The translations under genes were made by a program, and so were the position numbers. A stretch of 64,000 nucleotides of DNA from a virus. How positions within the stretch are numbered: the first letter of the stretch is position 1; each line of letters begins with the position of its first letter. The stretch lies in IMG/VR virus record IMGVR_UViG_3300028589_000001. One strand, 5' to 3'. The notes beneath the pieces were generated by a model that saw only the letters and a list, made by a program, of their open reading frames with translations, was not told the origin of the DNA and searched no databases. Below, one piece after another: positions 1-59,190 of this stretch.

Positions 1-486
1 CCCGGTGCCCGGATCTTGGTAGCGGCCGTACTTGTGATCGGTCAGGGCCTTGAGGCCTACCGTCAACAACGGGCGCTTGTCTTCAGCGAACACCAACTGC
101 TGGTAGTTGATACCGTAGACCACCTGCATGTGTTCGGCGCCAGGCACCACACAGGGCAACACGTAGCCCAGGTAAATGTCGGCCTTCTTCATGCCAGTCA
201 AGGCCTTGAAGTAGGTGGCGTCGCACACGTACAGGTATTTGGTGCCCAGGCGGTTCAAGGTGCTGCCTAGTTTTGGCAGGTACTCTTTCACCGTCTTGGC
301 AGACACTTTCTTCGCGTCGTCGTATTCCAGAGTCATTGCAATGATCTGGTCCAGGGGAACACCCATACGCACAAGCGGATCGGCGTAATACGACTGCATA
401 AGGTCCTTGCGGAAGGTGGAGGCCTTCAACAGGACCGCAACTTCGTACTGGTTGCCCGTATTGGGCTTGAACAGTTCGTAACGCAC
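1..486 (-). CDS. hypothetical protein (partial, continues past window start)
   Basis: Minus-strand frame opens at GTG 486-484 behind GGAGG (rc of 491-495) and stays open to position 1 (VRYELFKPNTGNQYEVAVLLKA...). Confidence 0.35.
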   Translation of the reverse strand, partial: MRYELFKPNTGNQYEVAVLLKASTFRKDLMQSYYADPLVRMGVPLDQIIAMTLEYDDAKKVSAKTVKEYLPKLGSTLNRLGTKYLYVCDATYFKALTGMKKADIYLGYVLPCVVPGAEHMQVVYGINYQQLVFAEDKRPLLTVGLKALTDHKYGRYQDPGTG

Positions 487-494
487 TTTACCTC

Positions 495-1019
495 CTAGTC
501 GAGCAGTAAATTCAGCATCAGACGACGCTTGAACGCTTCACGACTCGGCGGGTACACGTTCAGCGTGTCTTCCAGTTCTTCCAGGTCCGGGGGAACCTGG
601 AATGCCAAGCCAGCAGCCTGATAGGCCTCGGACAGTGGCGGGCGTAGCGCCGAGGGCAAGATCTTCATGATTTCCACAGGATCGTCGCTCGACGACATGA
701 TCGCCCGTATATAGGGCATGACCAGCAGTTCTTCGTCGTCCAGTTCCTTCGCGGTGGCGATGTACTCATCCATGGATGCGTGCAGGCCTACCGGCAGCTC
801 TGGCCAGTTGATAATGCCGTGCATACCGCCCGGGCGCTTATACAACCGGCCTCGGTAGTAGAACCCGTGCACTGGGTAGTGCAGTTGGGTATCACTGGTG
901 TCAATGATCTTGTCGAGCAACGCGGCGTTGGCCTTCTTAGCCGGCGCGAATGCGTAGTCCACAATGATCTGCTGGATGCGGATTTTGACCGCGGCTGGTG
1001 ACATACGCACTCGTGACAT
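495..1019 (-). CDS. hypothetical protein (174 aa)
   Basis: Longest ORF at this locus; same strand and tight spacing as neighbouring minus-strand genes. Confidence 0.5.
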   Translation of the reverse strand: MSRVRMSPAAVKIRIQQIIVDYAFAPAKKANAALLDKIIDTSDTQLHYPVHGFYYRGRLYKRPGGMHGIINWPELPVGLHASMDEYIATAKELDDEELLVMPYIRAIMSSSDDPVEIMKILPSALRPPLSEAYQAAGLAFQVPPDLEELEDTLNVYPPSREAFKRRLMLNLLLD

Positions 1020-1023
1020 GGCT

Positions 1024-2286
1024 TTAACCTCGTGTATCGCCGGTGAAGAACATACGTTTGCGGAAACGGCTGCAACCCACGTACAGGATGCGCGCCAGTT
1101 GGCTGTTTTGACGGACCTTTTGCATGATGTTGCCCAGGTCGATGAAACCGGTGTCGTAGGTGCTGCCCTGGCTCTTGTTCACCGTACAGGCGAACGACGG
1201 GCGCAGGTCGAGCCACTGATCCTGGATTTCACGCATGGCAGTCCAATCGTCTTCCTCGCGGGCATACTTCAGTGCCTGCTTGGTAGCATCACGGCTCGAC
1301 GGCATGAACCAACCTTCACCCTTGTTGCGGATGGTCAGTCGCCAACCACTGACGTTGTGCTGGATGTCCGGCTCGACCTCGGTGATCAAGACCTCGCCGT
1401 TGTTGGCGATCATGGCCTGAGCCATTTGCTTGGTCTCGTTGGCCACCATCACCTGCCCTGGTTTCGGGTCGGTAGACCCGTGGAACACCCCGGTAAGCCA
1501 GCTGTTGTAGAACTGCACGGCGTCGTTGGTGTAGCACAGGATCTTCGTCCGGCCCCAGGTGTCGGGGTCGTTGAAGGCATCCAGTACCATGGCCTGCCAC
1601 TGCTGCAACGGGAACTTTTCCAGCACACCCGCTTCCACGAACTGGCTGAAATTGGGGTACGGTGCATTGGCCACGACAGTTTGACGCAGCGCGTTGACCA
1701 GACCAGCAACCGGACCGGTCTCGAAGCGCGTAGGCTCCGTCAGTTCGATTTCCCGGGTCTTCAGGTTGAACACCGGCATGTAGTTGGTGCCCACAGGTGT
1801 CAGCTGTGCTGGGTCACCGATGAATACGAACTTGCAGTCCTCGGTTTCACCGAAGATATGCGCCAGTAAGGCCTTGTCCACGTAGCTGACTTCGTCGACG
1901 AAGATGAGCTTGCGCGACACCTTCTTTTCCTTGGTAGGCCGCAGTACCTTTTTACCAGTGCGGTAATCCTCCATCTCCAGGCGCAGGCCCAGAGTGGAGT
2001 GGATAGTGCGCGCTTCGTTCTTGTTGCCGGTGGCAATGATCAGCGACTCGGCAGCCTGGTTGGTGGTGGCGGACAGTACCGGTTCGTAGGCCTGGAAGTC
2101 CGGGTCCAACATTTTGGCCATGGCTTCCAGCTTTGGCAGCTGAGACAAGATCTCAGCTACCAGTGTGGACTTACCGGTGCCCGAATAGCCCTTGAGCAGC
2201 ATGACTGTCTCGGTGGGGTTCAGGTAGAACTCGGTGAACGATTTGAGGCCGTCCTCCTGGCCTTTGGTGAATTTGAATTCGGCCAT
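1024..2286 (-). CDS. Dda/RecD-like SF1 DNA helicase
   Basis: Walker A GYSGTGKST near the N-terminus and helicase-like downstream motifs; AGGAGG sits 4 nt before the internal Met at 2286 (track ORF 1024..2367). Confidence 0.75.
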   Translation of the reverse strand: MAEFKFTKGQEDGLKSFTEFYLNPTETVMLLKGYSGTGKSTLVAEILSQLPKLEAMAKMLDPDFQAYEPVLSATTNQAAESLIIATGNKNEARTIHSTLGLRLEMEDYRTGKKVLRPTKEKKVSRKLIFVDEVSYVDKALLAHIFGETEDCKFVFIGDPAQLTPVGTNYMPVFNLKTREIELTEPTRFETGPVAGLVNALRQTVVANAPYPNFSQFVEAGVLEKFPLQQWQAMVLDAFNDPDTWGRTKILCYTNDAVQFYNSWLTGVFHGSTDPKPGQVMVANETKQMAQAMIANNGEVLITEVEPDIQHNVSGWRLTIRNKGEGWFMPSSRDATKQALKYAREEDDWTAMREIQDQWLDLRPSFACTVNKSQGSTYDTGFIDLGNIMQKVRQNSQLARILYVGCSRFRKRMFFTGDTRG

Positions 2287-2294
2287 GAGGCCTC

Positions 2295-3467
2295 CTATGT
2301 GTTGAAGCGTATGATGGTGCCGAACTTGCAGCGGAAGTTGTCCTTGGTGCGCCCGAAAACCAGCCAAAGTACTGGCACGCCGGGGTCGATTTTGGGGTGG
2401 CTGTACTCACCGTCGGTGAACACCACCAAGGCCGTCGGCTTGCGCTTTTTGGTCAGCTCCATCACCGGGTGGATCGATGTACCGCCACGACCGGTCATCT
2501 TGACCCGGGACAGGTCGCCGATGCTGGTGATACGGTCGATGCTGCGAATACCGTGGTCGAACTGGATCAGGTTGAGAGCCGAGGGCTTGCACTGCTTCAT
2601 GACGCCGGCCAACTCACTGATAGCCCGTAGTACATCGTGGTCACTGGTTGAACCAGATACGTCGACCGCGAAGTCCAGTTCGCTCATGGCTTCGCCCTTC
2701 AAACCAGGCAACATGATCTTGCGCCCGAAACGGCGGTTGATCTTCGCCCAGCTATAGTCCGTCTTGGCCAAGGCCTTGAAGAACTTGCGTAGGTGGTAAG
2801 CCAGCGGCAGTTTCGGTTTCAGCAGGCTATCCAGGAAAATCTGGACAGCCCCGGGCACCGATCCCGGCTGGCCTGCCATCTGTGCCGCGGCAGCTGCTTG
2901 AGACAGGATGCCGGTGATAGCGCGCTCTTTGGCGGCCAGTTCTTCAGCCGTCATGGTTTGGCCTTGGCCAAAACCACTTTGACTTGGGTCAAAGGTGCCT
3001 GGCTGGCGAATATCGTCGAAGCCGCCGCTACCGGACATTGGCTGAGCCGTCATATCCGGTAGCAGGTGGTAAACCTCTTCCGTAGTCATATCGCGGTACT
3101 TTTCATCGCACAGCCAGCCTGGAATCGGCTCAAAGCCAGACGCTTTCAACATGAGGTTAATCACGTAGTCGGCGGCATGGTTGAACCGGGTGTGATCGGG
3201 GAAACTGGCACCGCGGCAAACGTGCTGCAGCACTACGTGCATGGTTTCATGCGCCAGCAGCGTAATACGCTGCTCGGCCGGCAACTTCATGAAGAAGTCG
3301 GTGTTGATGATCAGCCACTCGCCATCGGTGGCGGCAGTTTCATAACCCGGCTCGTTGAACCGCATTTTGAGCATGAAGCAAACCGTCGTCAGGAATACCG
3401 ACTCTGGTTTACGCATGAAGCCAACCCGGGCCTTGAGCAAGGCGGCCTGGAACTCTTTGTCTTCCAT
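2295..3467 (-). CDS. VWA-domain protein with N-terminal HExxH-like (DUF2201-type) region
   Basis: HETMHVVLQH motif in the N-terminal half, C-terminal VVFTDGE-type VWA signature; lies immediately downstream of the MoxR ATPase gene; GGAG SD 7 nt before the ATG. Confidence 0.65.
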   Translation of the reverse strand: MEDKEFQAALLKARVGFMRKPESVFLTTVCFMLKMRFNEPGYETAATDGEWLIINTDFFMKLPAEQRITLLAHETMHVVLQHVCRGASFPDHTRFNHAADYVINLMLKASGFEPIPGWLCDEKYRDMTTEEVYHLLPDMTAQPMSGSGGFDDIRQPGTFDPSQSGFGQGQTMTAEELAAKERAITGILSQAAAAAQMAGQPGSVPGAVQIFLDSLLKPKLPLAYHLRKFFKALAKTDYSWAKINRRFGRKIMLPGLKGEAMSELDFAVDVSGSTSDHDVLRAISELAGVMKQCKPSALNLIQFDHGIRSIDRITSIGDLSRVKMTGRGGTSIHPVMELTKKRKPTALVVFTDGEYSHPKIDPGVPVLWLVFGRTKDNFRCKFGTIIRFNT

Positions 3468-3471
3468 TGGA

Positions 3472-3900
3472 TTACTCCGTAAGCATGCGAGTGAGGATGT
3501 GGCGCTTGCCGTACTCCCTTTGGTTGTCGTCGAAAGCAGGACCGGACAGCACAGCCGCCAACTGGTTTATGCGCTCTACAGGGTTTACGTGAGGAATGAG
3601 TTTTTTGGCCCACAGCTCACGTTCTTCGTAGTCGCCCCAGTTGAACTCACCGACCAGACCTCCGTGGTGATTGAATCTCACCGCTCTGTGGTACACAGCC
3701 ACACTTTCTGCCTTGCCCAGGAAGGTACAGGCGTTTACCGGCACACCACACTTGGCGAAATCGTCAAGGTAGGTGGCCATCAGACTGTCAGTGGTACCAC
3801 CACGGTGAGCCCAGCTGTAATCTTGGCAGTGTGTGACCGTATTGCGGAAGCTTTCGGGAGCTGAGGCATCAAACGCTTTAGGCCACACGAACAGGAACAT
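3472..3900 (-). CDS. hypothetical protein (142 aa)
   Basis: ORF on the operon strand, packed between the MoxR and VWA genes. Confidence 0.45.
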   Translation of the reverse strand: MFLFVWPKAFDASAPESFRNTVTHCQDYSWAHRGGTTDSLMATYLDDFAKCGVPVNACTFLGKAESVAVYHRAVRFNHHGGLVGEFNWGDYEERELWAKKLIPHVNPVERINQLAAVLSGPAFDDNQREYGKRHILTRMLTE

Positions 3901-4961
3901 TACAGCAGCACTTTGGCGTTGGCGTTGATCCAGGATGCCAGGTCAGGATTGGACAGCAGCGTCTTATCCTTGCGCACGGCGTTCTTCAGGGTGATCACCT
4001 GAAAGTCGCCGGGCATACGCAGGATGTATGGCATCAGGCCACCGATGGTGTCCTTGTTGATCCAGTCACCCAGCGCGCCAGACAGGCAGTACAGGGCGCC
4101 CGGGTTGTCCAGGCCAGGTTGCGGCGCCGTCTTCGGATTGGTCAGTACTTCTTCCTTGCGGGGCAGATCCAGACGCATGCTGGCGAAGGTGATGAACTCC
4201 TGCGCCGGGCCGATATTTAGCTTGCCGGCCAGCGGTACCAGTTTGCCCACCGGGTTGCCTTTCCAGACATCCAGCAGCTTGTTGGCATCCTGCCAGGACC
4301 GCGGCGCCGCGAACGGCTGGTCCGGGTTGGTGTTGTCGAAGGTGTAGAAGCAGTCGGTCTTCCACTGCAGAAACGAGGTGATGAGCGAGCGCACACCATC
4401 CGGGCCTTGGGCCCACTGCAGCCAGAAGTCGAAGTCCTCGGTGCATTCCAGCACCATCAGGCGGCTGATCAGGGCCGAAGACATGTCCTCGGTGATCGCG
4501 CCGTCGTCGTCCAGGTTGCCCGCTGCACAGATGTGCGCCTTGGGGTGCAGCTTGCGCTGACCCACCATACGGTCCAGGAAGAACTTGTACGACGCCGCTT
4601 GTACCGCACGAATGGCCGAGTTCAGCTCGTCGCAGAAGATCAGCCAGCCGTCATACTGCAAACCGGTGGCCGGGTTGACCGGCAGTTCCCAATCATCCAG
4701 CGGGAAGGTTTCGAGCGGATAGTACCGCGCGATGTTGGCCTTCTCGTCGATTTGAGGGAAGCCGTTCATGTCGGTCGGGTCGAAGCCAGCGAAGCGAGCG
4801 TCGATCACCTTGAGGTTCAACTTGGCAGCCACAGCATGGATTGCTGCGGACTTGCCGATAGCGGGGCTGCCTTGCAGGAACGGTACGAGCCCGGCCAGGA
4901 TACCGTCACGCACGTATTCGATGGATTCGCCCAGTTTTACACGCAGAATCGGGTCAAGCAT
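3900..4961 (-). CDS. MoxR-like AAA+ ATPase
   Basis: Walker A GSPAIGKSAAIHAVA; AAA_5/MoxR-like length (353 aa) and layout. Confidence 0.75.
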   Translation of the reverse strand: MLDPILRVKLGESIEYVRDGILAGLVPFLQGSPAIGKSAAIHAVAAKLNLKVIDARFAGFDPTDMNGFPQIDEKANIARYYPLETFPLDDWELPVNPATGLQYDGWLIFCDELNSAIRAVQAASYKFFLDRMVGQRKLHPKAHICAAGNLDDDGAITEDMSSALISRLMVLECTEDFDFWLQWAQGPDGVRSLITSFLQWKTDCFYTFDNTNPDQPFAAPRSWQDANKLLDVWKGNPVGKLVPLAGKLNIGPAQEFITFASMRLDLPRKEEVLTNPKTAPQPGLDNPGALYCLSGALGDWINKDTIGGLMPYILRMPGDFQVITLKNAVRKDKTLLSNPDLASWINANAKVLL

Positions 4962-4973
4962 GGTGTTACTCCT

Positions 4974-5183
4974 TTAGAGATTTTTCAGTAGTTCACGGAT
5001 GGCCTTTACGGCCTCATCAGTAGAATTGAGCCCTGCAATACGCATGTACTGCATGGCCATGGATTGAGCTGCGGCAGCGGCACCTATAGACCGCCCTGGT
5101 TGTTCGATGTGGTACTTGTCCACGAACTCACGGTAAGAGCGCCAGTACCAAGCCAACTTGTCTAACGCTTCTTCCTTGGTCAT
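4974..5183 (-). CDS. hypothetical protein (69 aa)
   Basis: Small ORF on the operon strand. Confidence 0.4.
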   Translation of the reverse strand: MTKEEALDKLAWYWRSYREFVDKYHIEQPGRSIGAAAAAQSMAMQYMRIAGLNSTDEAVKAIRELLKNL

Positions 5184-8817: not shown

Positions 8818-9328
8818 GCAGCATTGCGAATGCGGTTACAGGTACCCAGTCGTCAGGCTTTACCCAGCCTTCTTCCCAAGCAGTGCGAATGTGCCCGGAG
8901 GGCACGGATACGAACCAAATGCCTCGTTTGGCGCAGCCATCAATCACAGGGCTGTAGGCCTTGCCATCAACGACACACCACGGCTTTTGGCAGAAACCAA
9001 AACGTTCGAGTACATCGGTGCGTACTTCGCCGGGGCCCCACATTTCCAGCTGGCGCCACAGTGCAGTGTTGCCGCGCTTCTTCGGCGCCCAAAGGTCAGG
9101 CCCTACTTGTTTCCACTGGTTTGGCGTCAGCACGGACGGGTCCTTGAAGACGAAACCAGCAAAGGAACCATCATGGGCCCAGGTACGAAACTCGCTGCAG
9201 CCAAAGGCCTCAGCTACTTGGGCAATGCCCATGCGGCGGTGCGCTTGACGACGGTCCAGTGCCTGGATCATGCCGTTCAAGGCACCACCATTGACCCGAT
9301 AGTGGGTCAAGGTGATGTTGTCGCTCAT
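8765..9328 (-). CDS. hypothetical protein (187 aa)
   Basis: ORF on the operon strand. Confidence 0.5.
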   Translation of the reverse strand: MSDNITLTHYRVNGGALNGMIQALDRRQAHRRMGIAQVAEAFGCSEFRTWAHDGSFAGFVFKDPSVLTPNQWKQVGPDLWAPKKRGNTALWRQLEMWGPGEVRTDVLERFGFCQKPWCVVDGKAYSPVIDGCAKRGIWFVSVPSGHIRTAWEEGWVKPDDWVPVTAFAMLHEKYDWSTEDVQSTETH

Positions 9329-11031: not shown

Positions 11032-11241
11032 CTGTCTCCTTGGTTTCCGGGGGCTTTTAGGTCGCCTAGTGGGCGACCGGCACTTCTGACAATAAAAAAA
11101 TACACTCCGCAGCCCGTAAGGGCCGCAGAGCGCGTAAGTGGCCGGAGGCCACGTCACTTCGTTTATTTGAAGAATCTTGTGTACATAAAGTGGAACACTG
11201 CGTCGATAAAGAACGCTAATACTGCAATAGCAAGCCATTCT

Positions 11242-12507
11242 TCAAGAGATAGCATAGGTAGACTCCAGAATCATGTTGGCCAATTCGTCACCGTTCATTG
11301 CGTTGTCATAGTGCGGTTCTACACCGGTAATCTGTTTGAACACATCTTCCAGTGCACGACCACGAGCCAAGTCAGCCAGAATGCTTACATAGTGCGCACT
11401 CATGGCATTACAGTGGTTTGGGTGGCACTTGAACTCGTCATGCACAGTGATAACGTCGAACGCGCCGGCGTTCCACATCTCCAGCGCAATTTCATACAGT
11501 CGCACCAGATGCGGCGTCTCCATATAGCAGATGTTGGCGGTAGTCATATGCGGGAATATAACAACGTCAGCTACACGAGTGTGGTAGTAACGCTCAAGAT
11601 ATACGTGCATGGTTTCAGTGATTTCTTCAAGTTCAGCCTCCAAACCACCACGCTCATTACGGCGCGCAAGCTCGAACTCCATTACCTTAATGGCTTTGGC
11701 GAGCATATCCACATCATAGGTGCACCGGCGCTGCACACAGCGCAGCAAGTAGGCATCGAAGCTGTGGGTAACGTTAGCTACCAGCTTCAAGTCCTTCTTG
11801 GTGCCTTCGTTGACGTAGTAGTCCATGCTGAAGGTGCTGTGGCCCAACTCGTCCACTTCAACGCGGGCGCCTTCCACCTTCTGCATGACCTTGATGCGGG
11901 CATGGAAGTTGTCCGGCATTACCCACTTGTGCTCCAGCGCAAACGGTTGCCACGCAGCGCGCAGGTCGCCCAGCAGCTCTACTGCACCTGGGGCAATGTC
12001 GGTCAGGCCTTTGTAGAAGGCTTCCAGCTCTGGGGTATCTTCACCGAAGATGTCCCGTGGGGTCTTCACCGAGCCATACAGCGCAGTCATGGTGGCGTCC
12101 TTGGCGTCACCACGGTCGATGGCCAAGCCTCCGCCCAAGTACTGCGACGCCCTATCGGTCACCATGGTGTACGCATCGTTCCGGGTGTCCGGGTCGATCA
12201 GGTTGGTGGCCAGGCAGCCCAAGTAGCACTTGGTCAGCACGGACATGATGCTCATGCCGCTACAGGTTGCATCCAGGCCTACCAGATGGCCAATGGCTTG
12301 ACCTTTACAGGCACGCAGCAGGCCCATGACAGCCTTGACATACAGCGGGCGTTCCTTCTTCGGGCTGGCCAACACGGTCAGTCGCTCGAAGTTATCTTTA
12401 ACCCACTGAATACGCACTTCAAAGGTTTTCTTGTCCAAACCATACTGGTTTGCGATATCGATGCACAGCCATTCAACAGGGGTATATTGACGCTTCATAG
12501 GAGACAC
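11242..12507 (-). CDS. phage RNA polymerase II large subunit (T7-like single-subunit RNAP, palm/fingers half)
   Basis: LDATCSGMSIMS matches T7 motif A (DGSCSGIQH); ITVHDEFKCH matches T7 motif C (HDSFG). Confidence 0.8.
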   Translation of the reverse strand: MSPMKRQYTPVEWLCIDIANQYGLDKKTFEVRIQWVKDNFERLTVLASPKKERPLYVKAVMGLLRACKGQAIGHLVGLDATCSGMSIMSVLTKCYLGCLATNLIDPDTRNDAYTMVTDRASQYLGGGLAIDRGDAKDATMTALYGSVKTPRDIFGEDTPELEAFYKGLTDIAPGAVELLGDLRAAWQPFALEHKWVMPDNFHARIKVMQKVEGARVEVDELGHSTFSMDYYVNEGTKKDLKLVANVTHSFDAYLLRCVQRRCTYDVDMLAKAIKVMEFELARRNERGGLEAELEEITETMHVYLERYYHTRVADVVIFPHMTTANICYMETPHLVRLYEIALEMWNAGAFDVITVHDEFKCHPNHCNAMSAHYVSILADLARGRALEDVFKQITGVEPHYDNAMNGDELANMILESTYAIS

Positions 12508-12837: not shown

Positions 12838-13230
12838 TCAGTACTCCACTATCCTCACTGGTTTCGATCGGCGCTTCATCTCACCGATCATGTTGCCAGT
12901 ACCCTTGGACTCACCGTCCCAGAAAGCCAGCAGGCCAGACCCGTGCTCAGCCATGTAGGCATTGCGCATTGGGCCGGCTGCCTTGCCATGCTGCGACCAT
13001 TCGGCCGGCACACCCATGTAACGTAGCTTGAGGGCCTGGGCGGCCAGCTTGGCCCAGTAGTCAGCGCCACGAGGGCACTCACCACTGATGATGACGACCT
13101 CATAAGGCGCCAGCTCCTTCCACATGAGCTTGCAGACCTCTCGTTTGAGCAAGTCAAAGTCGTTGAAATCGCGACCACCAGCTACCACAAGGTAGTAGGG
13201 TGGTTTAGAAGCGGAATTCGTCTGGGACAT
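12838..13230 (-). CDS. SLOG/DprA-LOG-like Rossmann protein (DUF2493-like)
   Basis: LVVAGGRDF ... VVIISGECPRGADYWA ... AGPMRN glycine-rich nucleotide-binding-type motifs. Confidence 0.45.
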   Translation of the reverse strand: MSQTNSASKPPYYLVVAGGRDFNDFDLLKREVCKLMWKELAPYEVVIISGECPRGADYWAKLAAQALKLRYMGVPAEWSQHGKAAGPMRNAYMAEHGSGLLAFWDGESKGTGNMIGEMKRRSKPVRIVEY

Positions 13231-14134
13231 CGGTAATCACCTCTTTGTTGTGTAGTTCAACCATGGCTTTCTTGATTGGGCTGCCTTGAGTGCTGATATG
13301 GTAACCACAGGCGTACAGACGCCCACGTTTGTCACACTTGTGGTCCAGATAGAACTTATTACCCTGTTGGGCCATCAGATGATAGAACTCATACGACTGG
13401 CCTTTCATGTCGAGCCAGTTCTTCACCTTTTCAGGTGTATCCAGCTCACTGTTGGGCTCTTCTTCAACAAGGCACAGGAATTCCGTGTCCAGGGACAATG
13501 GAATGCTATTCTTGATGTTGATAGCGTCCAAACAGATGTCATCACTGTGATGACCCTTGTTCAAGATCCTTGAGGTGTCCTCAATGGTCAGGTACGGGGT
13601 ATCACGGTTATGGGTGAGCTTCTTAGGCTCGCAAACCAGTGGTGGCAGGTAAGTGGCGTTCTTTATGTACTCTTCCAGCTCTGGCGGCAGTTGAACGTTG
13701 CTGGTGATATGCAAGCTGTCAAACTTGTCATTCTTGTCGATATCGAAGAAGTCAGTTTCACACAGCACGGCTGCGATCTCTGCAACGGTCTTTACCGACT
13801 CCAGCTTGTCATCGAAGCCCAGGATACCTGCTAGTTTCGCGCAGAAGCTGCTATACAGCTCACGCGACTGGCAATAAACACTTGCAACCACAACGTCTAG
13901 CACAATGGCTTCAAGATCCATTGCACGCAGCGCAGCTACGCGCACATTCTTGCTGCTGTAGCTGAACTCCGTGTTTGCCCACTCAGTGAGCAGGGTCAAC
14001 CCCTTCGCCAGCGCTGGCTGGAATACTTCCGTGGCAGCGATGTACTTGCGCACATAGCCGTCGATGTGATGGCGGGCAAAGCGGTATTCGTTCGCGCGCT
14101 GCATATCATCAGGCAACATCAGTGCTGGTTTCAT
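13205..14134 (-). CDS. phage RNA polymerase II small subunit (T7-like RNAP N-terminal-half homolog)
   Basis: YLDHKCDKRGRLYACGYHISTQGSP resembles T7 RNAP DWRGRVYAVS; lies upstream of the large-subunit gene. Confidence 0.7.
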   Translation of the reverse strand: MKPALMLPDDMQRANEYRFARHHIDGYVRKYIAATEVFQPALAKGLTLLTEWANTEFSYSSKNVRVAALRAMDLEAIVLDVVVASVYCQSRELYSSFCAKLAGILGFDDKLESVKTVAEIAAVLCETDFFDIDKNDKFDSLHITSNVQLPPELEEYIKNATYLPPLVCEPKKLTHNRDTPYLTIEDTSRILNKGHHSDDICLDAINIKNSIPLSLDTEFLCLVEEEPNSELDTPEKVKNWLDMKGQSYEFYHLMAQQGNKFYLDHKCDKRGRLYACGYHISTQGSPIKKAMVELHNKEVITDVPDEFRF

Positions 14135-18066: not shown

Positions 18067-18141
18067 GATGTAGTTCTCTCTGTAGATTAGAAGTGGTTGG
18101 CATGATTGCCGTTACAAGGCCGGAGGCCGTGCTTTTGATCT

Positions 18142-18951: not shown

Positions 18952-19284
18952 TTAGAGACCTTCGTTTTCCATAGCAAGGGCGAAGCCCTGCCACCAGTCG
19001 CGGCAATGCTCGACTGTGATTTTGTGATGCTGGATGCCCAGTGTCTTGACCAGGTGGTTGATCAGCGTCGTGACACCAGTAGCCCTCAGCTTGCGTTCGA
19101 TACGACGGCGCAACAGGTCGGCGCTGACACGGCTCAGATTACCGTCCAATACCTCGTGGTTTAGGAACGGGCACATGAAATTCATGTCATAGCCCCGCTT
19201 GAACGTGGTGCCGTGTGGGCGCATGAACTCAGGCTTGTAGCGGTCACTGCAGACCAGGCCCAGCAGGTAGTAGGACAGTTTCAT
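18952..19284 (-). CDS. hypothetical protein (110 aa)
   Basis: ORF on the operon strand. Confidence 0.45.
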   Translation of the reverse strand: MKLSYYLLGLVCSDRYKPEFMRPHGTTFKRGYDMNFMCPFLNHEVLDGNLSRVSADLLRRRIERKLRATGVTTLINHLVKTLGIQHHKITVEHCRDWWQGFALAMENEGL

Positions 19285-20674: not shown

Positions 20675-20890
20675 TTACGTCTTGGGTTTATCGATGGTGC
20701 CGTACTTTTGCAGGTTGGCAGCCATTACCAAGGCATCAGCACAGCCTGCTTCAGCGTCTTTGACAGCACAGTCGTAGCACATGTCGGGCTGGCTAGGTGC
20801 GTACACGGTATCGCACCCACAGACGCTGCAAGGACCATCAGTTTGGGTAGGAGTATCAGACACTGTCTTGAACATGGGTATACACCTCAA
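20675..20890 (-). CDS. small Cys-rich protein (first gene of the minus block)
   Basis: CSVCGC...CYDC cysteine pairs. Confidence 0.5.
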   Translation of the reverse strand: MRCIPMFKTVSDTPTQTDGPCSVCGCDTVYAPSQPDMCYDCAVKDAEAGCADALVMAANLQKYGTIDKPKT

Positions 20891-21130
20891 TAGTTGTCAT
20901 GACATGTCCGTAGGACACAGCACATACAGTATAGGTAATGACAGGTAGGGCTGAAAAAGTAGGGGGCATATAGGTAGGGGTCAAGTGCACCACATCATGC
21001 ACTACCTAGCCCCAAATCCCCCTCACTATCCCTCACACGAGGGTTGTAAGTGATGGCAAGTGGTAGTACCTGTCTCAAATCAGTTGGGTAGGGTTCAATC
21101 TCCCCTTAGCTATCCCTACTGTCTCCCCGC

Positions 21131-21180
21131 TTTGATGTGTGCTCTTGATGTGTGCTTGTGATCTTGAAATGTGTGCTCTT
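21131..21180. repeat. short tandem direct repeats (GATGTGTGCTCTT-like units)
   Basis: gatgtgtgctctt gatgtgtgcttgt gatcttgaaat gtgtgctctt, read directly. Confidence 0.5.
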
Positions 21181-21222
21181 AAAAAAGGGCACCTCATCAC
21201 CCTTTGATAGCAGTGATGAGGC
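21178..21222 (-). terminator. intrinsic terminator (minus strand)
   Basis: 9-bp stem cctcatcac/gtgatgagg followed by T6 on the minus strand (A6 on plus). Confidence 0.5.
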
Positions 21223-21310
21223 GTTTGAACAGGTAGGGTGCAGCCATAGCTACGATACCTGCGGCCCACAGGGTTACACACAGTACAGCGAGCGAAGTTT
21301 CGAAGGTCAT
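21197..21310 (-). CDS. candidate 37-aa hydrophobic peptide
   Basis: MTFETSLAVLCVTLWAAGIVAMAAPYLFKRLITAIKG with GGAG 10 nt upstream; below the track length cutoff. Confidence 0.3.
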   Translation of the reverse strand: MTFETSLAVLCVTLWAAGIVAMAAPYLFKRLITAIKG

Positions 21311-21365
21311 GACATTAACTCCATGGTTTGGGGCCTACTTAGGTAGGTAGACCCCGTTGGGTTGG

Positions 21366-21692
21366 TTAGGCAGCTTTCTTGGCAGTGGCAGCGTCTTGTT
21401 TGTCCAGCTCTTTGGCAGCTTGGCGCATCTCGGCCATCATCTTCATGTCTTCCTGGTCGAAGGTGGACTTGAGGCGCTTGTACTCTTGTGCACGTACCAG
21501 TGCGGTCTTGTCGTTGAAGTGGGCAGCTTCACCCTCTACGAACGAAGCACCATGGTTTGCAGCGTTGGCCAGCTTCTCAGCAGCAGAGAACAGCGAGGCG
21601 AAAGCAGCGAACAGGTTACGGAACATAGCGAACATGTGGGTATCTCCAGAGTAGTGGACGGTATTGTCCAGCACACGCCCGTAGGGCAGCAT
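21366..21692 (-). CDS. hypothetical protein
   Basis: ORF; the start may be the internal Met at 21635. Confidence 0.4.
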   Translation of the reverse strand: MLPYGRVLDNTVHYSGDTHMFAMFRNLFAAFASLFSAAEKLANAANHGASFVEGEAAHFNDKTALVRAQEYKRLKSTFDQEDMKMMAEMRQAAKELDKQDAATAKKAA

Positions 21693-21899
21693 CTACACAG
21701 CAAGCCACACAGCAGGTAGGGTAGGGTGGGGTCGTTGAGGAAAAACATAGGGCAGACACCCCCGGGGGGTAGGTCGAGTCGCGAGCGCAGAAGCATAGAG
21801 CACTGCCTTCGTAAGTCCATAACGAAAATTCCCCTATGGCGGTCTAACCCTCACTACTATACTATCCGCACCTATACCCTACTATTAGGAGCCTAAATC

Positions 21900-22175
21900 A
21901 TGTTCTACCGCAGACGCGGGGCCAACGAGGTCCGCAGGTTCCAGGTCTACCGTACAGGAACTGATAACCTATCTAACCCCTTTCCACTATGGCTTCAGGG
22001 CATGATCATGCTCAACCAGATCAAAGTGGAAGACGACTGTCTACAGATACACACGTTCACCGGTGACTGGCGCAGAGTAGGACCAAGTAAGGTTGTACTC
22101 TATGACACCTTCTTTGGAATGATGGAGATGCACGAATCAGACTTTGAACAACACTGGGAGGCTATACAGCCATGA
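21900..22175 (+). CDS. hypothetical protein (91 aa), first gene of the plus block
   Basis: AGGAG SD 8 nt before the ATG. Confidence 0.5.
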   Translation: MFYRRRGANEVRRFQVYRTGTDNLSNPFPLWLQGMIMLNQIKVEDDCLQIHTFTGDWRRVGPSKVVLYDTFFGMMEMHESDFEQHWEAIQP

Positions 22176-22891
22176 CCACCGCAGTACAAACCAAAAAGGA
22201 GCCATTGCTGTCCAAGGACGAGTTCCTGGCAGCATTGCCACCGCAGATACAGAAAAGGGGCCTAAGCCAGGAAGTAATCACCGGTGTGACGCAGTTGCTG
22301 TCCGACCCGGACATGGCCGAGTCCTACCGCGACAACCTGCTGGGCTACACCAGCGTGATGAACGAAGGTAAGTTCAAGCTCACCAGCTACGTCAAAGCTG
22401 TGCAGTACGTGACGCAAAAGCTGTCGGGCAAGACAAACCAGGATGCGTACCAGGCCACGTTCCCGGATAAGTGGAATGACTGGCTGGCGCGCAATGTGTC
22501 GCCCAAGGACATCAGCAGCTACGTGTCGATCTACAACGGTAGCCAGCTGGTCAACAAGATCCTGGAACAGTCGCTGATCCCCAACTGGGTGCTGAACCAG
22601 GATGTGCGGCAGAAGGCCATCAACCATCTGGCTTCGCTCATGGTTTCGGCGCAGTCGGAGAAGGTGCAGTGTGATGCGGCCAACGCATTGCTGACCCACC
22701 TCAAGATGCCGGACAAGTTGAAGGTCGAGCTGGACGCCGGGCCGCAAGTGGGCGGTGTGATGGACGAACTGCGCAAGCAAACCACGGCACTGGCCGGCAT
22801 GATGCAAGACGCGGTGAAAGCCGGGGTTATGTCAGCCAAAGATGCGGCCGAGCGTCCGCTGATCATTGATGGGGTGGCTGAACGTGTCTGA
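22172..22891 (+). CDS. putative terminase small subunit (assigned by position only)
   Basis: 239-aa ORF immediately upstream of the large terminase and overlapping it; no motif seen. Confidence 0.3.
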   Translation: MTTAVQTKKEPLLSKDEFLAALPPQIQKRGLSQEVITGVTQLLSDPDMAESYRDNLLGYTSVMNEGKFKLTSYVKAVQYVTQKLSGKTNQDAYQATFPDKWNDWLARNVSPKDISSYVSIYNGSQLVNKILEQSLIPNWVLNQDVRQKAINHLASLMVSAQSEKVQCDAANALLTHLKMPDKLKVELDAGPQVGGVMDELRKQTTALAGMMQDAVKAGVMSAKDAAERPLIIDGVAERV

Positions 22892-36994: not shown

Positions 36995-39900
36995 GTGGCT
37001 AATGAGTTCGACCTTACTAGCTTTTTGAACAGTCAGGCGGACGTTGAGGCCGGGGTTACCCCGGCTTTCGACCCTATAGACTATACTCCGCGTGCTGGGC
37101 TGGACATGATTGGTAGCCAGAAGGTCTTGGACCTGGACCTGGCCAACCAACGTGCCACCCGCAACGTTGAAAACGCACTGGTGGATAAACTGGGTCTCGA
37201 AGCTGACTCAGCGCTGGGTACTGTCGTCAACGACGGCGCTTCGCTGTTCTCTGGCTTGACCCGTGTAGCCGGCAACCTGGCTACCCTTCCAATCGACGCT
37301 ATTACCCAAATCGGCCAGGCCACTGTGCCTGACGATGTCATTTCTGCGTACACCCGCCGTATGACCGGTGAGGACATTCAAGAAGGCGATGACGCCCTGT
37401 TGGATGCCATTGCACCAGGCACTGAAGAGGGTGGTGTACCGCAAACTTACTTCCAGCGTATGCAAGGGCTGCAAGGCCTGCGCGACGTTTCGAAGAACAT
37501 CGCTGACACATTCGACTTCTCTTCGATTGTTAATACCGACCGCCGTGACGAACTTAGCGATGACATTCGCGAAAGCACGGCCGCTGGTGTGGCAAACATC
37601 CGCGAAGGCTATGAGTCTGGCGATCTGCTGCAAACCGGTAAAGGCGTGGCCCAAACCATTGGTAATGCCTTGGTTTCTGGTGTCACCAACCCTGGCGCCG
37701 TAGCTGAGTACGCTGCAGAGAACCTGCCGCAACTGGCTGCTGTTGCTGCCAACCCTGCGCTTGGTGTAGCCACCAACGCCGGCTATGGCTTCAATGAACT
37801 GCGCGAGGGTTACACCGACTACGCAGCTGAGCACAAAGGCGCACTGCCACCAGCCGCTGACCGCAACAAGATGGCCTTGTTTGCAGCATCTGCTGTTCTT
37901 GCCGAGCAAGTGGGCGATATGTCCATGCTCCGCGGGTTCACCAAGGCTGCCAAGACTTCTGGTGTCGGTTCGGCCGCTAAAGGCGTGGCCGGTGCTATGA
38001 CCAAGGAAGGTATCACTGAAGGGTACCAGACCTTCGCTGAAGGTCAGGCACACCTGGAAGACCGTTCTCTGGAAGAGATTGTGGAGGCTGCTACCATCGG
38101 TGCGATGGTCGGCGGTACCTACCACGGGGCAATGGAACTGGCCAACACTGGCCGTGCCCAAATGGAGGCAAGTGAACAACGTGTCGCCACTGAAGCCGCG
38201 TTTACCACTGCTGTCGAATCGGGCGACGTTACTGCCCTGTCTGACATGGAATCCCCGACCTATGACCCTGTCCGTGCAGTCCAAGCGCTGCAAGAGACAA
38301 TCAAAGGCGGCGATGAAGTGGCTGTACAGGAAGCCGTGGCCAAGTCTGATGAGATCCAGCAGGACCTGGCGAAAGAAGTGTCTCAGCTGGAGGTAATGCT
38401 CCAGACGTTCGAACCAGAAGCAGTAGCTGACGTAGCTGCCCGTCGTGAAGCCCTTGTGGCCAATCAAGGCGATGAGGCAGAGATTGCACGCTATGACGCT
38501 TTCTTGGAACGTGCTGCCGAGTTCACTCCTGAAACCATCCAAGGTATGCAGGAATACCACGCCGAGCTAAGTCAAAAGCTCGTCGATGTTCGTGCTGCCG
38601 CCGAGCAGTTCCAAGTAGCCGCCAGCCCGGAAGCTGATGAGGTTGCTGCGATTGCTCAACAAGCATCTGCCGGGGATACCAATCAGGCTGACCGCCTGTT
38701 GACCCTGACCATGATCAACCCCAACTCCGTTGACACTGCGGTGGCTTCGACCCTGGCTGAGTCGGAATCGCTGAGCCCTGAGCAACGTACAGCCTTCAAG
38801 GCCTTCCAGGCAGCGCAAGTAGCCGCTGATAACCTGCAGACCATTGAAGGTGTTCGCTCGGACATCACTACCGGTGGTGACGGGTTCAAAGGGGTACCCC
38901 AGTACCGTAACGCTATCCGCATGGCCCTGGCCCAAGGCAACGAAGCTGCTGCCCGCTCGCAACTCGAAGGTATCAGCAAGTTCGCCGCAAGCCGGCAGTC
39001 CAAAGCCGCTGCAATCACCGCTGCTTACGAGCAAGTGAAAGGCACCGGTAATTCGGTCTATTTGGCACCGGACGCGAAAGGTCAGTGGGCACCAGTACCT
39101 GCACAGGTAGATGGTGGCATTGTGGTGGACGGCCGCTCCTTCAAGCTCCGGGACGCTGTGAGTTCTGAAGCCGAGTACCTGGCCCGTGTTGCAGACGCTT
39201 TCACTGCACTGGTAAACGCTGCACCGAGCTATAAGCCTGCCCAAGCCACGGCAGCTGTAGTTCAGGCCCCTACTGTTGTGCAAGAAGCACCTCAAGCAGG
39301 GGTAGCGCCTGTTGTCGAAGCCCAGCCGCAGTCGGGCCAAGTCAACGTTGAACAAGTGGCCCCTGTAGTGGAGCCAGTCGCAGAACCGGTAGTCGAAACC
39401 GGTGAGCTGACTGCTATCCGCAATAAGCCACAAGAAGAAGTGACCGCGGACAATTATCGTCAGCTCAACTTGGTTGGTGCGCTGTTCGAACAGAATCCGG
39501 GCAAAGATACCGATGCGTCGCAAAAACCCCTGGTCAAAGTCGCTGACTTTGCTGCCAAGGTTAAGACCGACCCATCTGTGGTATATGAGTACCTGGACCA
39601 GCGCAAAGAGCTGTCCCAGCCGCAGAAAACAGCGGTGGCTCGTTTCTTCAAGTTCAACACTTGGGCGGACTCGAAAATCCGTGAACAGTTCAAGGTCAAG
39701 AACCAAGACTTCCGTTTTGTCGACCTTGCGCAATATCTGGTGAATGACGACGGTTCTCTGGACGAGAACGTCGTGACTGCTACTTCTTACAGCATGTTCA
39801 CCTGGGCCAACGAATCGGCCACACAAGTTACCAATACGGACGAGTCCATCAATGCCATCCTCATGCGCGATTTGGATGAGGACATTAGCAACACTGAGTA

Positions 39901-42900
39901 CGCCGTGCTGGGTCGGGTTGGTACCCGTGAAGCGTTCATTGCCGCACAACTGGGGCAACGTATCGTTCAAGCACTGGGCCTGCGCGCCAATGCCCAAGCA
40001 TCCGAGAGCGAAGTCGCTCGTCTGGAAAGCTCCCTGGGCCAGCGTGCTATCAACGCCATGGTTTCCCTCGGCATTGCCGAGCGTATTCAGGTGCCTGACA
40101 CTCAGCTGCAACCGCTGATGAAGACCGGCGCCACCCCTGATGCCAAACTGCAACACACCTTTATCCGTGTGAAGGCGGAGCAGGTTGACGGTAAGTGGGT
40201 TGCTGTACGCCCTGTCCAACTCGTGCGTGAGGCCTCTACTGGCTCGCAGTCTGTGCTGTCCAAGCTGTTTGGTACCGAAGAGTCCGGCGTAGAGCCGAGC
40301 TACACCCCGGTACCGTTCACGCAGCAGACTGCCAAACGGACAAACCAAGATGTACCTAAAGTACTGGCTTCGATCCTGGAAAAAGAAGGCAAAAAGGCAC
40401 ATGTAGTCCGTCAGGACATGTACCAGCTGTGGGGCAACCTGTCCCAGCAAGCCCTCTACGAAATCGCTGGTGTTGTCGATAGCACCGACACGCCAACCCA
40501 CGTTGAGAACCGTGCTTCCCGTGAGGCCAAGAATGATGGCCTGAAGGCGCAGGTAGACAACTTCAGCGTGTTCGTAACCAAGATGGTCAACGACCCAAGC
40601 ACTAATGGCCTGGAACAAGAACTGTTCTTCGGTCGCTCGGTGTGGAAGCCCCAGCGTGTAGGCCTGACCGCCAACGTGATCAACCCGCAGACCTCCAAGG
40701 TCCACCGGCACATGATCAAGATGGCTGGCTGGAACGCTACCATCGACATGACCGACAAAGCCCAGCTGGACAACTTCAAGCTGCGCGTGATCGAGGCATT
40801 CGATGAGAAGACCGAGTCCAAGGCTACTGATCTGGTACTGCAAGGCTACGACCAACTGGTCAACCGCCCGGGTGTGCAAGACGCTGTAACTGCGCTGGCT
40901 GAAATCCTGCGTGGTGAAGCCAATGACACACTGGCCAATGAACAGAAGATCCTGGCCGGCGTGCGTGCCACCGGTAACAACTTCCACGGTCTTGACGCAC
41001 TGGTAGCGCTGGCACACCAGCACAACGCCGTGCGCAACGGCGCAACTACCTTCGACACCGAACTGATGGGTGAAGTAGACGGTCTTACCAACGGCCCGAT
41101 GCTTTCGTTGCTGATGCTGGGTGCCAAAGGCTGGGACACCCTGAACCAAGGTGGTTTCTTCTCCCTGGAGCAGGAATTCACCCAGTTCAACGATTACAAG
41201 GGCCTGGGCAACCTGGACCTCTATGAAGGCACCATTGCCGAGACCCTGAAGCGCCTGGGCAGCTCGCAGGTACAGCTGATGGATGCACTGCAGCTGATCA
41301 CTGGCAAACTGCAGAATGACGACGGCCGTGTGACCTCTAAAGGCCGTAAGATCATCAAGCAGCCACTGACCGCCATGATGTTCGGTTCGAACACCAAGAC
41401 CGCGGTACAAGGCATGGCTGATGGTTTCATCGAGACTATCTACAGCTCGATGGAAGACTACGCTGGCAACCGTGACGAAGCCGGCATGAAACAGCTGCTG
41501 GGTGCTGTAAATACCCTGATGCGCAACAAGGCGCCGAAACTGAACGTGAACCTGGGTTACGACCTGGCACTGAACACCAAACTGACCGAGCAACAGAAGC
41601 GTGCCATCAAAGACACCTTCTATGATCTGATCGGCAAGCCGACCGAAGATGCGCTGGGTGATACCTACGCTACCTTCCTGGCGCGCCGTGACACCATTAA
41701 CCAGACTGCTCAACTGGCTTGGAGCCTGTACGACGCTGCTGAACGTGCTGTGACTGCCTATGTCATGGACAACAGCCCCGACGTACCGCGCCGTAAGCAA
41801 GACGGCGAAATGCGCCCACTGCGTGCACTGACCAAGGCCCAGCAGGCTGAAGTCAAGCGCATCCTGGGTGACATGGAACCTGTGCTGCAAACTGCACTGT
41901 CCAAGGCTAGCAATCAGCCGTCGGCCGGCATGCACATGTCGAAGTCGGTGCGCTCGCTGGATTCCAGCCAGCCATACCAGTCCGACATTACCTTCGGCGT
42001 GCCGGTGCCGACCTTTGACCTGTCTGGCAAGCCAGTACAAGTACGCCTGCGCAACGGTGAGTACCAGTTCCCCGGTTCGACCAAGAACAGCGGCCTGCGC
42101 CGTCAGAACGTCGACCCTGGTGTAATGCCGTTCATTACCAGCATCCACAGCTCCGACTCGATGATCGCCTCGTCGGTCTACGGCAAGATGGAGGCGTTGA
42201 ACGTGCACGACGCCCTGGGCGTGGACCTGAATGACGTTGCTACTGTTGGCCAGAACCTGAACCAGGCCACCTACCAGACCATGCTGGATTACAGCGCCCC
42301 GACCGCCATGGCCGAGATGTTGGACCACGTACTGCTAGGTATGGGCCGTCTGATGGCTGACCCTGAACTGGCTGCGCGCATTCAGCCACTGCTGGCCGAA
42401 GTCATGGCCCAGCGCGGCGACAAGAAGCGCGGCAACTTCACCGAGCAGCTGCTGTCGATCCGTCATGTGGCTGAACAGGCAGATACCGACAAGCTTAACT
42501 ACCTGGCTTCCATGCGGGCCGTTGGCCAGTACGCTACCGAAGGTGGTTCGTACATCGTGACCGACGCTGACCGCGCCGCTGCACGTGATGCCCTGGCCAA
42601 GGTTGGTTCGACGCTGTCCGAAGATGCTGTGTTGATCGCCGAGTCGCTGGACGAAGCCGCCAAGGCTGCACCTGCCGACCTACAACCGAGCACCTTCAAG
42701 CAGCTGTCGTCGCAGTCGGTGACCACTTTGCAGCCAGCCACCAGCTTGAATGCCTTGGACAAAGCCAAGGTGGAAAATCCTGCGGTGCGTGCTGCGCTGG
42801 AGCAGAACAAAACCCTACACGAAGCGCTGGGTACCGTGCCTGCTGCTGAAGCTGCCGATATCATCGAAGCTGTGAACAACGTCACCGCTACCGCCAACGT

Positions 42901-58909: not shown

Positions 58910-59159
58910 GGGAAAATCCTTAGAAAATGATTGATCAAAAAATGAGCAGTAAACGGCCCCATTATATAAAGGGGTCTACTCCGTCCCCTTCGCTTAAAGC
59001 GCGAAAGCTACCGGAGGTAGCCCCCAGGCTCCGCACTCCTCCCCTACTTCTAGGGGAGGTCGAGCACGGGCCGGCGCGCCCCTAGCTGACCGGCGCAGCC
59101 GGTGCTGCGACGGGGATGCGCAAGGCACGGGCGATGACCGAGCCGTAATAGACGCACAA

Positions 59160-59190
59160 CGAAAAAACCCCGTCACATGGACGGGGTCTT
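59160..59190 (-). terminator. intrinsic terminator (minus-strand sense)
   Basis: CCCCGTCacatgGACGGGG followed by T6 on the minus strand (A6 on plus). Confidence 0.45.

Follow-up and report, generated by a model that had tools for sequence, protein, structure and literature searches.

A predicted terminal repeat and candidate hairpin promoters at the early-late gene junction of an uncultivated N4-like soil phage

The stretch of DNA considered here is the 64,000-nucleotide IMG/VR virus record IMGVR_UViG_3300028589_000001 (hereafter the window), and our subject is the junction of about 1 kb at positions 20891 to 21899, which separates a leftward block of early genes on the minus strand from a rightward block of late genes on the plus strand. 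We think it highly probable that this junction is the terminal region of a linear N4-like genome, comprising a direct terminal repeat (DTR) that was collapsed to one copy by assembly, two small early genes and hairpin promoters of the virion RNA polymerase (vRNAP). A first-pass annotation had proposed that the ends, the terminal repeat and the vRNAP promoters would be found here if the record was circularly permuted, and the comparison with relatives supports this proposal. It had also described the junction as noncoding, but about 390 of the roughly 1000 bases are coding.

To judge from its genes, the window is the genome of an uncultivated soil member of the Schitoviridae (N4-like phages), presented circularly permuted. 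An open reading frame (ORF) of 3373 amino acids at 36995-47116 on the plus strand matches the PHROG family phrog_2206, 'virion RNA polymerase' (E = 0, residues 74-3371), and also matches the Pfam families N4_RNAP_helical and vRNAP_dom_2, with scores under their cut-offs. The minus strand encodes a heterodimeric, T7-like RNAPII (subunit genes at 13205-14134 and 11242-12507) and an N4-type SSB (52858-53598), and it also carries primase and exonuclease genes. The genes for the terminase (N4 gp68-like), the portal and the major capsid protein lie on the plus strand, in a late block opposed to the early and middle block; the terminase shares 66-68% identity with its counterparts in Litunavirus, phCDa and an Enterobacter phage. 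A gp69-like protein of 239 amino acids is encoded at 22172-22891. The same phage, with an identical junction, recurs in several assemblies of soil metagenomes, and among its source metagenomes are JGI 3300028587 and 3300038441 and SRR8439257.

Read in the early direction, the junction and its surroundings contain the following features, in which a slash marks a predicted boundary of the repeat.

21818 to 21899, plus strand: late-side unique region, consisting of the GAAAATTCCCCTA..GCGG block plus the first late gene's leader, with CCCTCACTA and CCCTACTAT on the plus strand
21799 to 21806, minus strand: boundary motif GCAGTGCT, adjoining the predicted first repeat base; the relatives have their motifs at their left ends
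21003 to 21798, minus strand: predicted single-copy DTR of 796 bp, left end at about 21798 reading leftward and end at about 21003, placed by homology (about +/-10 nucleotides)
21764 to 21772, minus strand: CTA-CCCCCC run, the minus-strand half of the CCCCC/GGGGGG palindrome, 29 nucleotides from the predicted left end
21712 to 21731, minus strand: Box A, CCCCACCCTACCCTACCTGC, with two tandem CCCTACC, upstream of P1 and aligning with CTACCCCACC
21668 to 21687, minus strand: P1, candidate vRNAP promoter; hairpin GCCC GTA GGGC on the plus (template) strand at 21677-21687 (4 bp, centre 21682), predicted start at G 21669/21668
21366 to 21635, minus strand: gp01-like early gene of 89 amino acids (MFAMFRNLF...), ATG at 21635, ribosome-binding site (RBS) GGAGA
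21330 to 21355, minus strand: intercistronic RNA stem-loop with a 9-bp stem, between the two small genes (-17.4 kcal/mol, z = -1.8)
21197 to 21310, minus strand: gene for a hydrophobic single-span peptide of 37 amino acids
21181 to 21222, minus strand: intrinsic-type terminator of the two-gene unit, with an 11-bp stem (21212-21222/21191-21201), UGCCC and U6 (21181-21186)
21129 to 21180, minus strand: three (A)AGCACACA units (TGTGTGCT on the plus strand), spaced 13 and 21 nucleotides, directly after the terminator
21017 to 21126, minus strand: distal conserved blocks GACAGTAGGG, ACCCTACCC, CTCGTGTGAGGGATAG and TTTGGGGCTAGGTA, aligning to LIT1 550-655 and LUZ7 560-660
20999 to 21005, minus strand: boundary motif GTAGTGC, with 21003 as the last repeat base (GGTA/GTGC)
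20941 to 20979, minus strand: three CCCTAC(C) at a spacing of 14-15 nucleotides, between the repeat end and P2
20898 to 20917, minus strand: P2, candidate vRNAP promoter; template hairpin TGTCC GTA GGACA at 20905-20917 (5 bp, centre 20911), predicted start at G 20898
20675 to 20875, minus strand: first early gene past the repeat, 66 amino acids, Cys-rich, ATG at 20875, RBS GAGGTG
18965 to 18997, minus strand: further candidate vRNAP promoter, AGGGC TTC GCCCT, GGA at +13
18105 to 18137, minus strand: further candidate vRNAP promoter, GGCC TCC GGCC, GG at +13

A Megablast search with the junction found nothing similar among deposited phages, so the relatives had to be reached through proteins. 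The terminase as query pulled 67 N4-like loci from IMG/VR (the L-numbered loci below), and the 89-residue protein as query led to the Littlefixvirus phages Littlefix and 98PfluR60PP. The junctions were aligned with MAFFT in the early direction, together with the repeats of LIT1 and LUZ7. The records of these two phages begin and end at the physical termini, with annotated repeats of 655 bp (1-655) and 660 bp (1-660), respectively (Ceyssens et al. 2010, PMC3715699). Their annotation states that 'Direct sequencing on genomic DNA led to a full stop at the repeat ends', and the two repeat copies of LIT1 are identical.

The junction, read on the minus strand, is colinear with the DTRs of LIT1 and LUZ7 block by block and from boundary to boundary. 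The shared order is a boundary motif, a CTA-C6-7 run, a CTACCC(C)ACC box, a hairpin promoter, a gp01-like gene, a terminator, AGCACACA repeats and again a boundary motif. At the left ends LIT1 reads GCAGTACT/TCAGTCTGCGG, LUZ7 GCAGTACTT/CAGTAACGG, N4 TCAGTATT/TGGTGGGG and the window GCAGTGCT/CTATGCTTCTGCG, the ends of the three phages having been set experimentally and that of the window by alignment; the aligned motif is GCAGTACTT in Littlefix and GCAATACTT in L002. The C-run, which is usually CTA-C7 and occurs in the form CTACCCCCCC in many N4-like contigs, starts 29 nucleotides from the left end in LIT1, 28 in LUZ7, 31 in N4 and G7C, and 29 from the predicted end in the window. From the boundary motif and this distance, the left end of the window was placed at about 21798, which leaves P1 116 nucleotides from the end, compared to 95 in N4 and 137 in LIT1. 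At the other boundary, LIT1 reads GGGGTCTGGCA/GTGCATC, LUZ7 GGGGACTGTGTAC/TGCACTC and the window GGGGCTAGGTA/GTGCATG, with GTAGTACTT in Littlefix and GCAGTGCTT in L001 as the aligned sequences, and this alignment placed the end of the repeat at about 21003. In the window, LIT1 and Littlefix alike, both boundaries of the repeat have similar sequence of the form G(C/T)AGT(A/G)C. A common layout extends to L001, L002, Littlefix and 98PfluR60PP, in which early genes, a repeat-rich stretch, GTGTGCTCTTAAAAGG, a membrane peptide, a gene of 89-93 amino acids, a triloop hairpin, the C-run and late genes follow one another.

The candidate promoters were sought by a scan for perfect stems with a C-GNA-G triloop. 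As a positive control, the same scan of N4 positions 1-5000 returned exactly three hairpins, which match the three known early promoters in front of gp1, gp2 and gp15. In the junction it found two, P1 and P2. Both stand on the plus strand, from which the leftward genes are transcribed. The search for hairpin-promoter motifs that had been recommended for this region thus yielded two N4-type C-GTA-G hairpins lying, as predicted from sequence, ahead of two early transcription units, each just upstream of a gene start with a good RBS. They share a 20-nucleotide element, CA-NN-ACA-N-G-N-CCGTAGG-N-CA, whose sole two exact matches in the window are these. Hairpins of this class have a background of 0.12-0.18 per kb per strand, yet there is one at each of two homologous positions in seven genomes. 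P1 falls in the same alignment columns as the P1 hairpins of LIT1 and LUZ7, and P2 is at the same position as the hairpins ahead of the first post-repeat gene in LIT1, LUZ7, L002 and Littlefix; the LUZ7 hairpins used here are candidates, not individually confirmed as mapped start sites.

Thirteen promoters could be aligned without gaps, and the closing pair, the loop ends, a TG two bases past the stem and a G at +13 are invariant among them. The early transcripts of LUZ7 have been published to start with G, 13-14 nucleotides from the hairpin centre. In the window, GG stands at +13/+14 from the loop centre of P1 and a G at +13 in both hairpins, from which we infer that transcription would start at P1 and P2. 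In N4 a loop with 5' G and 3' A and a C:G closing pair are needed for extrusion (review PMC4496689), and both P1 and P2 have C-GTA-G. The four stem pairs gave a covariation score of 0.74, compared to 0.19 in shuffles (none of 500 as high) and at most 0.15 in slid controls; each pair occurs as two to four pair types, and 13 of the 14 sequences are paired.

A covariance model, R2, was built from 11 sequences of other phages, none of them from the window, and was run over both strands (128 kb) with filters off. The early strand carries its three best matches, none of which is more than 3.7 kb from the predicted left end. P1 is the second of them (18.8 bits, E ~0.01); the top match in the window is the hairpin at 18105-18137 (19.6 bits, E = 0.006), and the hairpin at 18965-18997 also scored well (18.6 bits, E = 0.011). 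The former (near 18123) is intergenic and upstream of an ATG near 18060, and the latter (near 18983) is upstream of a start at 18929 with the RBS AAGGAGGG. Probably, then, the phage has four vRNAP promoters, two of which are inside the junction. The two additional hairpins precede small early genes and are 2.8-3.7 kb away from the predicted left end.

The Littlefix-like relatives have an extra hydrophobic mini-ORF of 25-30 amino acids with a hairpin CACC TAC GGTG (L002 3972-4138; Littlefix, L068, ~2830-2950), which lies between the C-run and the gp01-like gene. The window has at this place CCCTACCTG but no 3' arm, perhaps the decayed remnant of that promoter.

The repeats of TAGGG(T) and CCCTA in both orientations, which had been reported earlier for the junction, are present at the coordinates given there and are strongly enriched. 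Ten of the 23 copies of GTAGGG/CCCTAC in the 64-kb window fall within 20891-21899, where 0.36 would be expected (binomial P = 9e-13). The shorter TAGGG and CCCTA together have 12 of their 52 copies there, compared to at most four in every other stretch of 1009 nucleotides. CCCTAC(C) was also the top word in an unbiased k-mer ranking for enrichment in the junction, and CCCTMMCTR (6 of 6 window matches) and GGTAGGG (6 of 7) are nearly confined to it. The orientation is strongly skewed: on the minus (early) strand CCCTAC can be read eight times, on the plus strand twice. One CCCTA-type copy is the P1 hairpin itself (GCCC TAC GGGC on the minus strand). The repeats as a whole are not themselves hairpin promoters but mostly copies of a CTACCC-type box found family-wide. 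The decamer CTACCCCACC is present in N4 (65-74), G7C, LIT1 (70-79), Littlefix and L053, and with one mismatch in L002 and L016; a box of this type stands downstream of the C-run in every phage compared. At the place equivalent to 20941-20979, LIT1 has CCCTCTACC, CCCTATACC and CCATCTACCC, and words related to CCCTACC are enriched more weakly in the relatives. The CCCTACC motif thus appears to be a lineage-sharpened form of a family-wide, strand-specific box near the genome end, one that would have been amplified here to a set of eight oriented copies, 24-83 nucleotides downstream of each predicted cut. Because the distance of the box to the mapped ends is conserved, a role in packaging or in recognition of the terminus is our preferred guess for it.

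The other repeats that had been noticed in the junction were found again. The tandem TGTGTGCT-like units are present as three copies of ATGTGTGCTCTT at 21135-21180 (period 13 and 2.7 copies in Tandem Repeats Finder), and two or three AGCACACA/CACACA units occur at the same place in all six relatives. Both palindromes exist, TGTCATGACA at 20895-20904 and CCCCC/GGGGGG at 21759-21769. As a hairpin the latter is not supported, and the relatives keep the C-run alone. We rejected a proposed duplication, by which the sequence following the repeat end would be a copy of the sequence following the repeat start: their local alignment scored 19, compared to a mean of 15.6 for shuffled sequences, and 193 of 2000 shuffles scored as high. 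What the two stretches share is the promoter core alone. An Rfam search of the junction gave no match, and scans for sigma-70 and terminator consensus sequences stayed at chance level, with no sigma-70 consensus match on the plus strand.

Both small genes of the junction have counterparts in the relatives. The 89-residue protein is homologous to LIT1 gp01 (E = 8e-10), which sits inside the LIT1 repeat, and has further homologs in Littlefix (gp31) and 98PfluR60PP (58% identity), L001, L002 and phrog_6483; no similarity to N4 gp1 could be detected. The peptide of 37 amino acids has counterparts in L001 (MTFEQSLA...), L002 and Littlefix (gp32, annotated 'transmembrane domains'), and equivalents of the intercistronic hairpin are found in L001 and Littlefix. 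The two-gene unit proposed earlier is therefore real and conserved in relatives, but its first ORF had been over-extended to 108 amino acids (21366-21692); according to the homologs the product has 89, the length also given mostly by gene callers on other contigs of the same phage. The terminator said to close the unit was confirmed as an 11-bp RNA stem followed by U6, with a folding energy of -20.1 kcal/mol (z = -2.4), and a hairpin followed by YTAYCC-TTTT is conserved in LIT1, LUZ7, L001, L002 and Littlefix. The start of the first early gene beyond the repeat needs to be moved, from TTG 20890 to most likely ATG 20875, and other contigs were called with the 66-residue product. On the late side, the GAAAATTCCCCTA..GCGG block is kept in L001, L002, Littlefix and LUZ7, and the plus-strand motif copies near 21848-21885 are part of the conserved leader of the first late gene. 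The region 21818-21899 may act as a late promoter.

Several observations weigh against our interpretation of the junction as a genome terminus. The window holds a single copy of the predicted repeat, as would be expected if the assembler collapsed it. Metagenome contigs of the same phage that are broken inside the junction have their breaks at about 21271-21313 and 20865 and not at the predicted ends, although this is a weak test, as breaks in metagenome contigs are often arbitrary. The terminase has only about 66% identity to those of the nearest phages whose ends are mapped, and the boundaries rest on short conserved motifs; the ends and the duplication of the repeat are predictions by homology. 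As for the promoters, the folding energies of the hairpins are unexceptional (z about -0.7 to -0.8) and their support is wholly comparative. The sequences used for covariation had been chosen by the hairpin scan, which gives a bias towards pairing, and R2 ranked P2 only fifth (12.7 bits, E = 0.44). The N4 polymerase contacts a purine at -11 and a G at -8 (review PMC4496689), but in P1 and P2 these contacts are not conserved, -11 (the loop centre) being T and -8 being C. Since T-centred loops are also found at the homologous sites in LUZ7, L002 and Littlefix, this mismatch looks like a lineage difference in specificity.

One might argue instead that the junction is only a divergent control region between early and late genes, with promoters but no fixed ends or repeat, in a genome that is packaged by the headful and truly permuted. 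This would agree with a record that is continuous over the junction, with several independent metagenome contigs that span it unbroken, and with the lack of a second copy of the region in the window. However, assemblers collapse terminal repeats, and such continuity is expected anyway. The colinearity with the mapped DTRs of LIT1 and LUZ7, which includes both boundary sequences, counts against a mere control region, and the Schitoviridae examined by PhageTerm in the literature have short T7-like DTRs; headful packaging is, in our opinion, very unlikely here. The oriented CCCTACC and AGCACACA units could alternatively be the iterons of a replication origin and not signals of the terminus or of packaging, a proposal that could coexist with a terminal repeat. 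They are short oriented repeats with a spacing of ~13-15 nucleotides in a noncoding stretch, as iterons might be, but no initiator gene is adjacent and the replication genes sit 10-35 kb away. Moreover, the CTACCC box and the C-run stand at a fixed distance from the mapped ends in N4, G7C, LIT1 and LUZ7, which points to end-related functions, and we hold an origin to be improbable.

It has also to be considered that the CCCTA-type motifs are promoters of the T7-like RNAPII. The phage encodes this two-subunit enzyme, and two exact copies of CCCTCACTA are directed rightward (at 21020 and 21848), one of them 44 nucleotides upstream of the first late gene; the sequence resembles the core of the T3 promoter, AACCCTCACTA. 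Yet all copies of CCCTCACTA are in the junction and none is ahead of the middle (replication) genes, and by our own estimate a 9-mer repeated once in 1 kb is close to chance. In LUZ7 the middle promoters have been published to be GC-rich hairpins and not T7-like boxes. We rejected the T7/T3-like reading of CCCTCACTA, no copy of which precedes a middle gene, and RNAPII promoters are in our view the most improbable of the explanations weighed here.

Taking the junction as a terminus with a repeat, we suggest the following course of events. By analogy with N4 and LUZ7, the left end (~21798) would lead the entry into the cell, accompanied by the virion RNA polymerase. Supercoiling by gyrase would extrude the C-GTA-G triloop hairpins on the template strand, and the polymerase would bind them and initiate with G about 13 nucleotides downstream of the loop centre. 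P1 would serve the gp01-like gene and the peptide, and P2, together with the sites near 18983 and 18123, the early operon; P2, about 90 nucleotides past the repeat, would be where the main early operon starts. The late operon would begin about 100 nucleotides outside the other repeat boundary and run in the opposite direction. During packaging, the terminase might cut concatemers at the G(C/T)AGTGC motifs flanking the repeat, which would be duplicated. The oriented CCCTACC and AGCACACA units would most likely be protein-recognition elements of the terminus and packaging apparatus; this is the least certain step.

Some further observations concern the termini themselves. The annotation of LIT1 puts the left boundary behind base 8 of the motif G(C/T)AGT(A/G)C(T/A) and the right boundary behind base 3, which is the pattern expected from one staggered cut with 5-nucleotide 3' overhangs at both sites. 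LUZ7 fits this pattern less cleanly, the motif being inverted at its repeat end. A CTA-C7-9 run about 30 nucleotides in, a CTACCC(C)ACC box and a P1 hairpin mark the left ends in at least three subfamilies of the Schitoviridae, namely those of N4 (L070 1-100), G7C (L082 1-100), JWAlpha (L083 1-70), LIT1 (L072 1-140) and LUZ7 (L073 1-90), and an identical 15-mer, CCTACCCCACCTTGT, is common to the left ends of N4 and LIT1. No description of this layout was found in the literature searched. Within the predicted repeat, a hypervariable patch at 21044-21076 accounts for 15 of the 23 junction differences of a variant contig of the same phage (L078); the conserved blocks on its flanks are unchanged and none of the 23 differences is in the hairpins. 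An exact scan for the 20-mer at the predicted left end, made in a metagenome contig collection that evidently lacks the phage, gave one unrelated chance match.

As a tentative and rather doubtful extension, the CTA-C6-9 run, the CTACCC(C)ACC/CCCTACC boxes and G(C/T)AGT(A/G)C may form an undescribed terminus-recognition module. To go by the alignments, such a module appears to be conserved in N4, G7C, Pseudomonas and Achromobacter phages and the soil phage of the window, and its elements are seemingly without description in the literature searched. It could be a pac-like signal for a staggered cut by the terminase, or it could dock ejection proteins or the polymerase on the first DNA entering the cell.

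Elsewhere in the window there is a second class of hairpins, on the plus strand at 8892-8904, 11139-11151, 56616-56628 and 59008-59020 (centres 8898, 11145, 56622 and 59014). They have GC-rich stems of 6 bp with a CC-GGA-GG loop on the strand that serves leftward genes as template. All are in the middle (replication) region, within intergenic spots or next to them, and one is found immediately ahead of the primase gene (start 56584). The TG...GG signature is missing downstream of them, and the early-promoter model did not match them. The middle promoters of LUZ7 have been published to be GC-rich hairpins with a stem of at least 6 bp and a loop of 3-4 nucleotides, and the second class resembles these. 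At 58910-59267 an intergenic gap separates the leftward replication block from a tail-fibre gene that runs rightward (59268-60704, phrog_496). This gap, which contains two GC-rich triloop hairpins besides the perfect 9-bp hairpin CCTCCCCTA-GAAG-TAGGGGAGG, is probably a module boundary with terminators or promoters. On the minus strand at 11080-11152, directly after the gene for the large RNAPII subunit, a 6-bp GGA hairpin is followed by the hairpin CTGCGGCCC-TTAC-GGGCTGCGG and T7 (seven T), which is likely a terminator closing the early region.

These results would turn a permuted contig into a linear map with a left end at about 21798, a 796-bp repeat and four early promoters with predicted starts, all of which are predictions, and they correct the start sites of two small early genes. 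The ends of N4-like metagenomic genomes could perhaps be predicted in the same way, from a boundary motif, a C-run about 30 nucleotides in, a CTACCC box and a triloop hairpin. The analysis also draws attention to conserved elements of the terminus, which are candidates for a role in packaging or ejection.

Among known systems, the DTRs of LIT1 and LUZ7 (PMC3715699) resemble the window in having a boundary motif, ~29 nucleotides to a C-run, a CTACC box and a triloop hairpin of 4 bp, a gp01 homolog with the leader ACTACTCTGGAG, a hairpin-plus-TTTT terminator, AGCACACA units, the blocks GACAGTAGG/CTCGTGTG/GGATAG/TGGGG, a boundary and a second hairpin promoter about 90-150 nucleotides on. They differ in repeat length (655 and 660 bp, compared to 796 bp predicted) and in the P1 loop (GAA, compared to GTA); the window in addition has the gene for the 37-residue membrane peptide, which is common to Littlefixvirus, L001 and L002, and its CCCTACC is far more sharply multiplied (8 oriented copies). 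P1-P3 of N4 are likewise template-strand hairpins with a 3-nucleotide loop 5'-G-N-A-3' and a C:G closing pair on the leftmost early strand (review PMC4496689), and N4 also has P1 at ~100 nucleotides from the left end, the C-run ~30 nucleotides in and the CTACCCCACC box. In contrast to the window, its stems are of 5-7 bp, its transcription starts 11 nucleotides from the loop centre, a purine at -11 and G at -8 are required where the window has T and C, and its repeat of 390-440 bp ends inside gp1.

The closest deposited phages for the genes of the junction are those of Littlefixvirus, Littlefix and 98PfluR60PP, which share the gp31 homolog, the membrane peptide following it, hairpins with GTA loops and the flanking late (N4 gp69/gp68-like) and early blocks. 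Unlike the window, they have the additional mini-ORF ahead of the gp31 homolog, provided with a hairpin of its own (P1a), and their records are permuted without annotated ends and thus uninformative on termini. T7 reportedly has a short exact terminal repeat with defined cuts and arrays of short oriented repeats adjoining it. Its phage-polymerase promoters lie near the entering end. The sequences and proteins of T7 and the window are unrelated, however; in N4-like phages an injected polymerase reads promoters that are DNA hairpins, and the predicted repeat of the window, unlike that of T7, contains genes. The junction reveals no new kind of system; its predicted organization is the ordinary terminal architecture of N4-like phages, of a kind already known, and it is closest to the repeats of LIT1 and LUZ7 and to Littlefixvirus.

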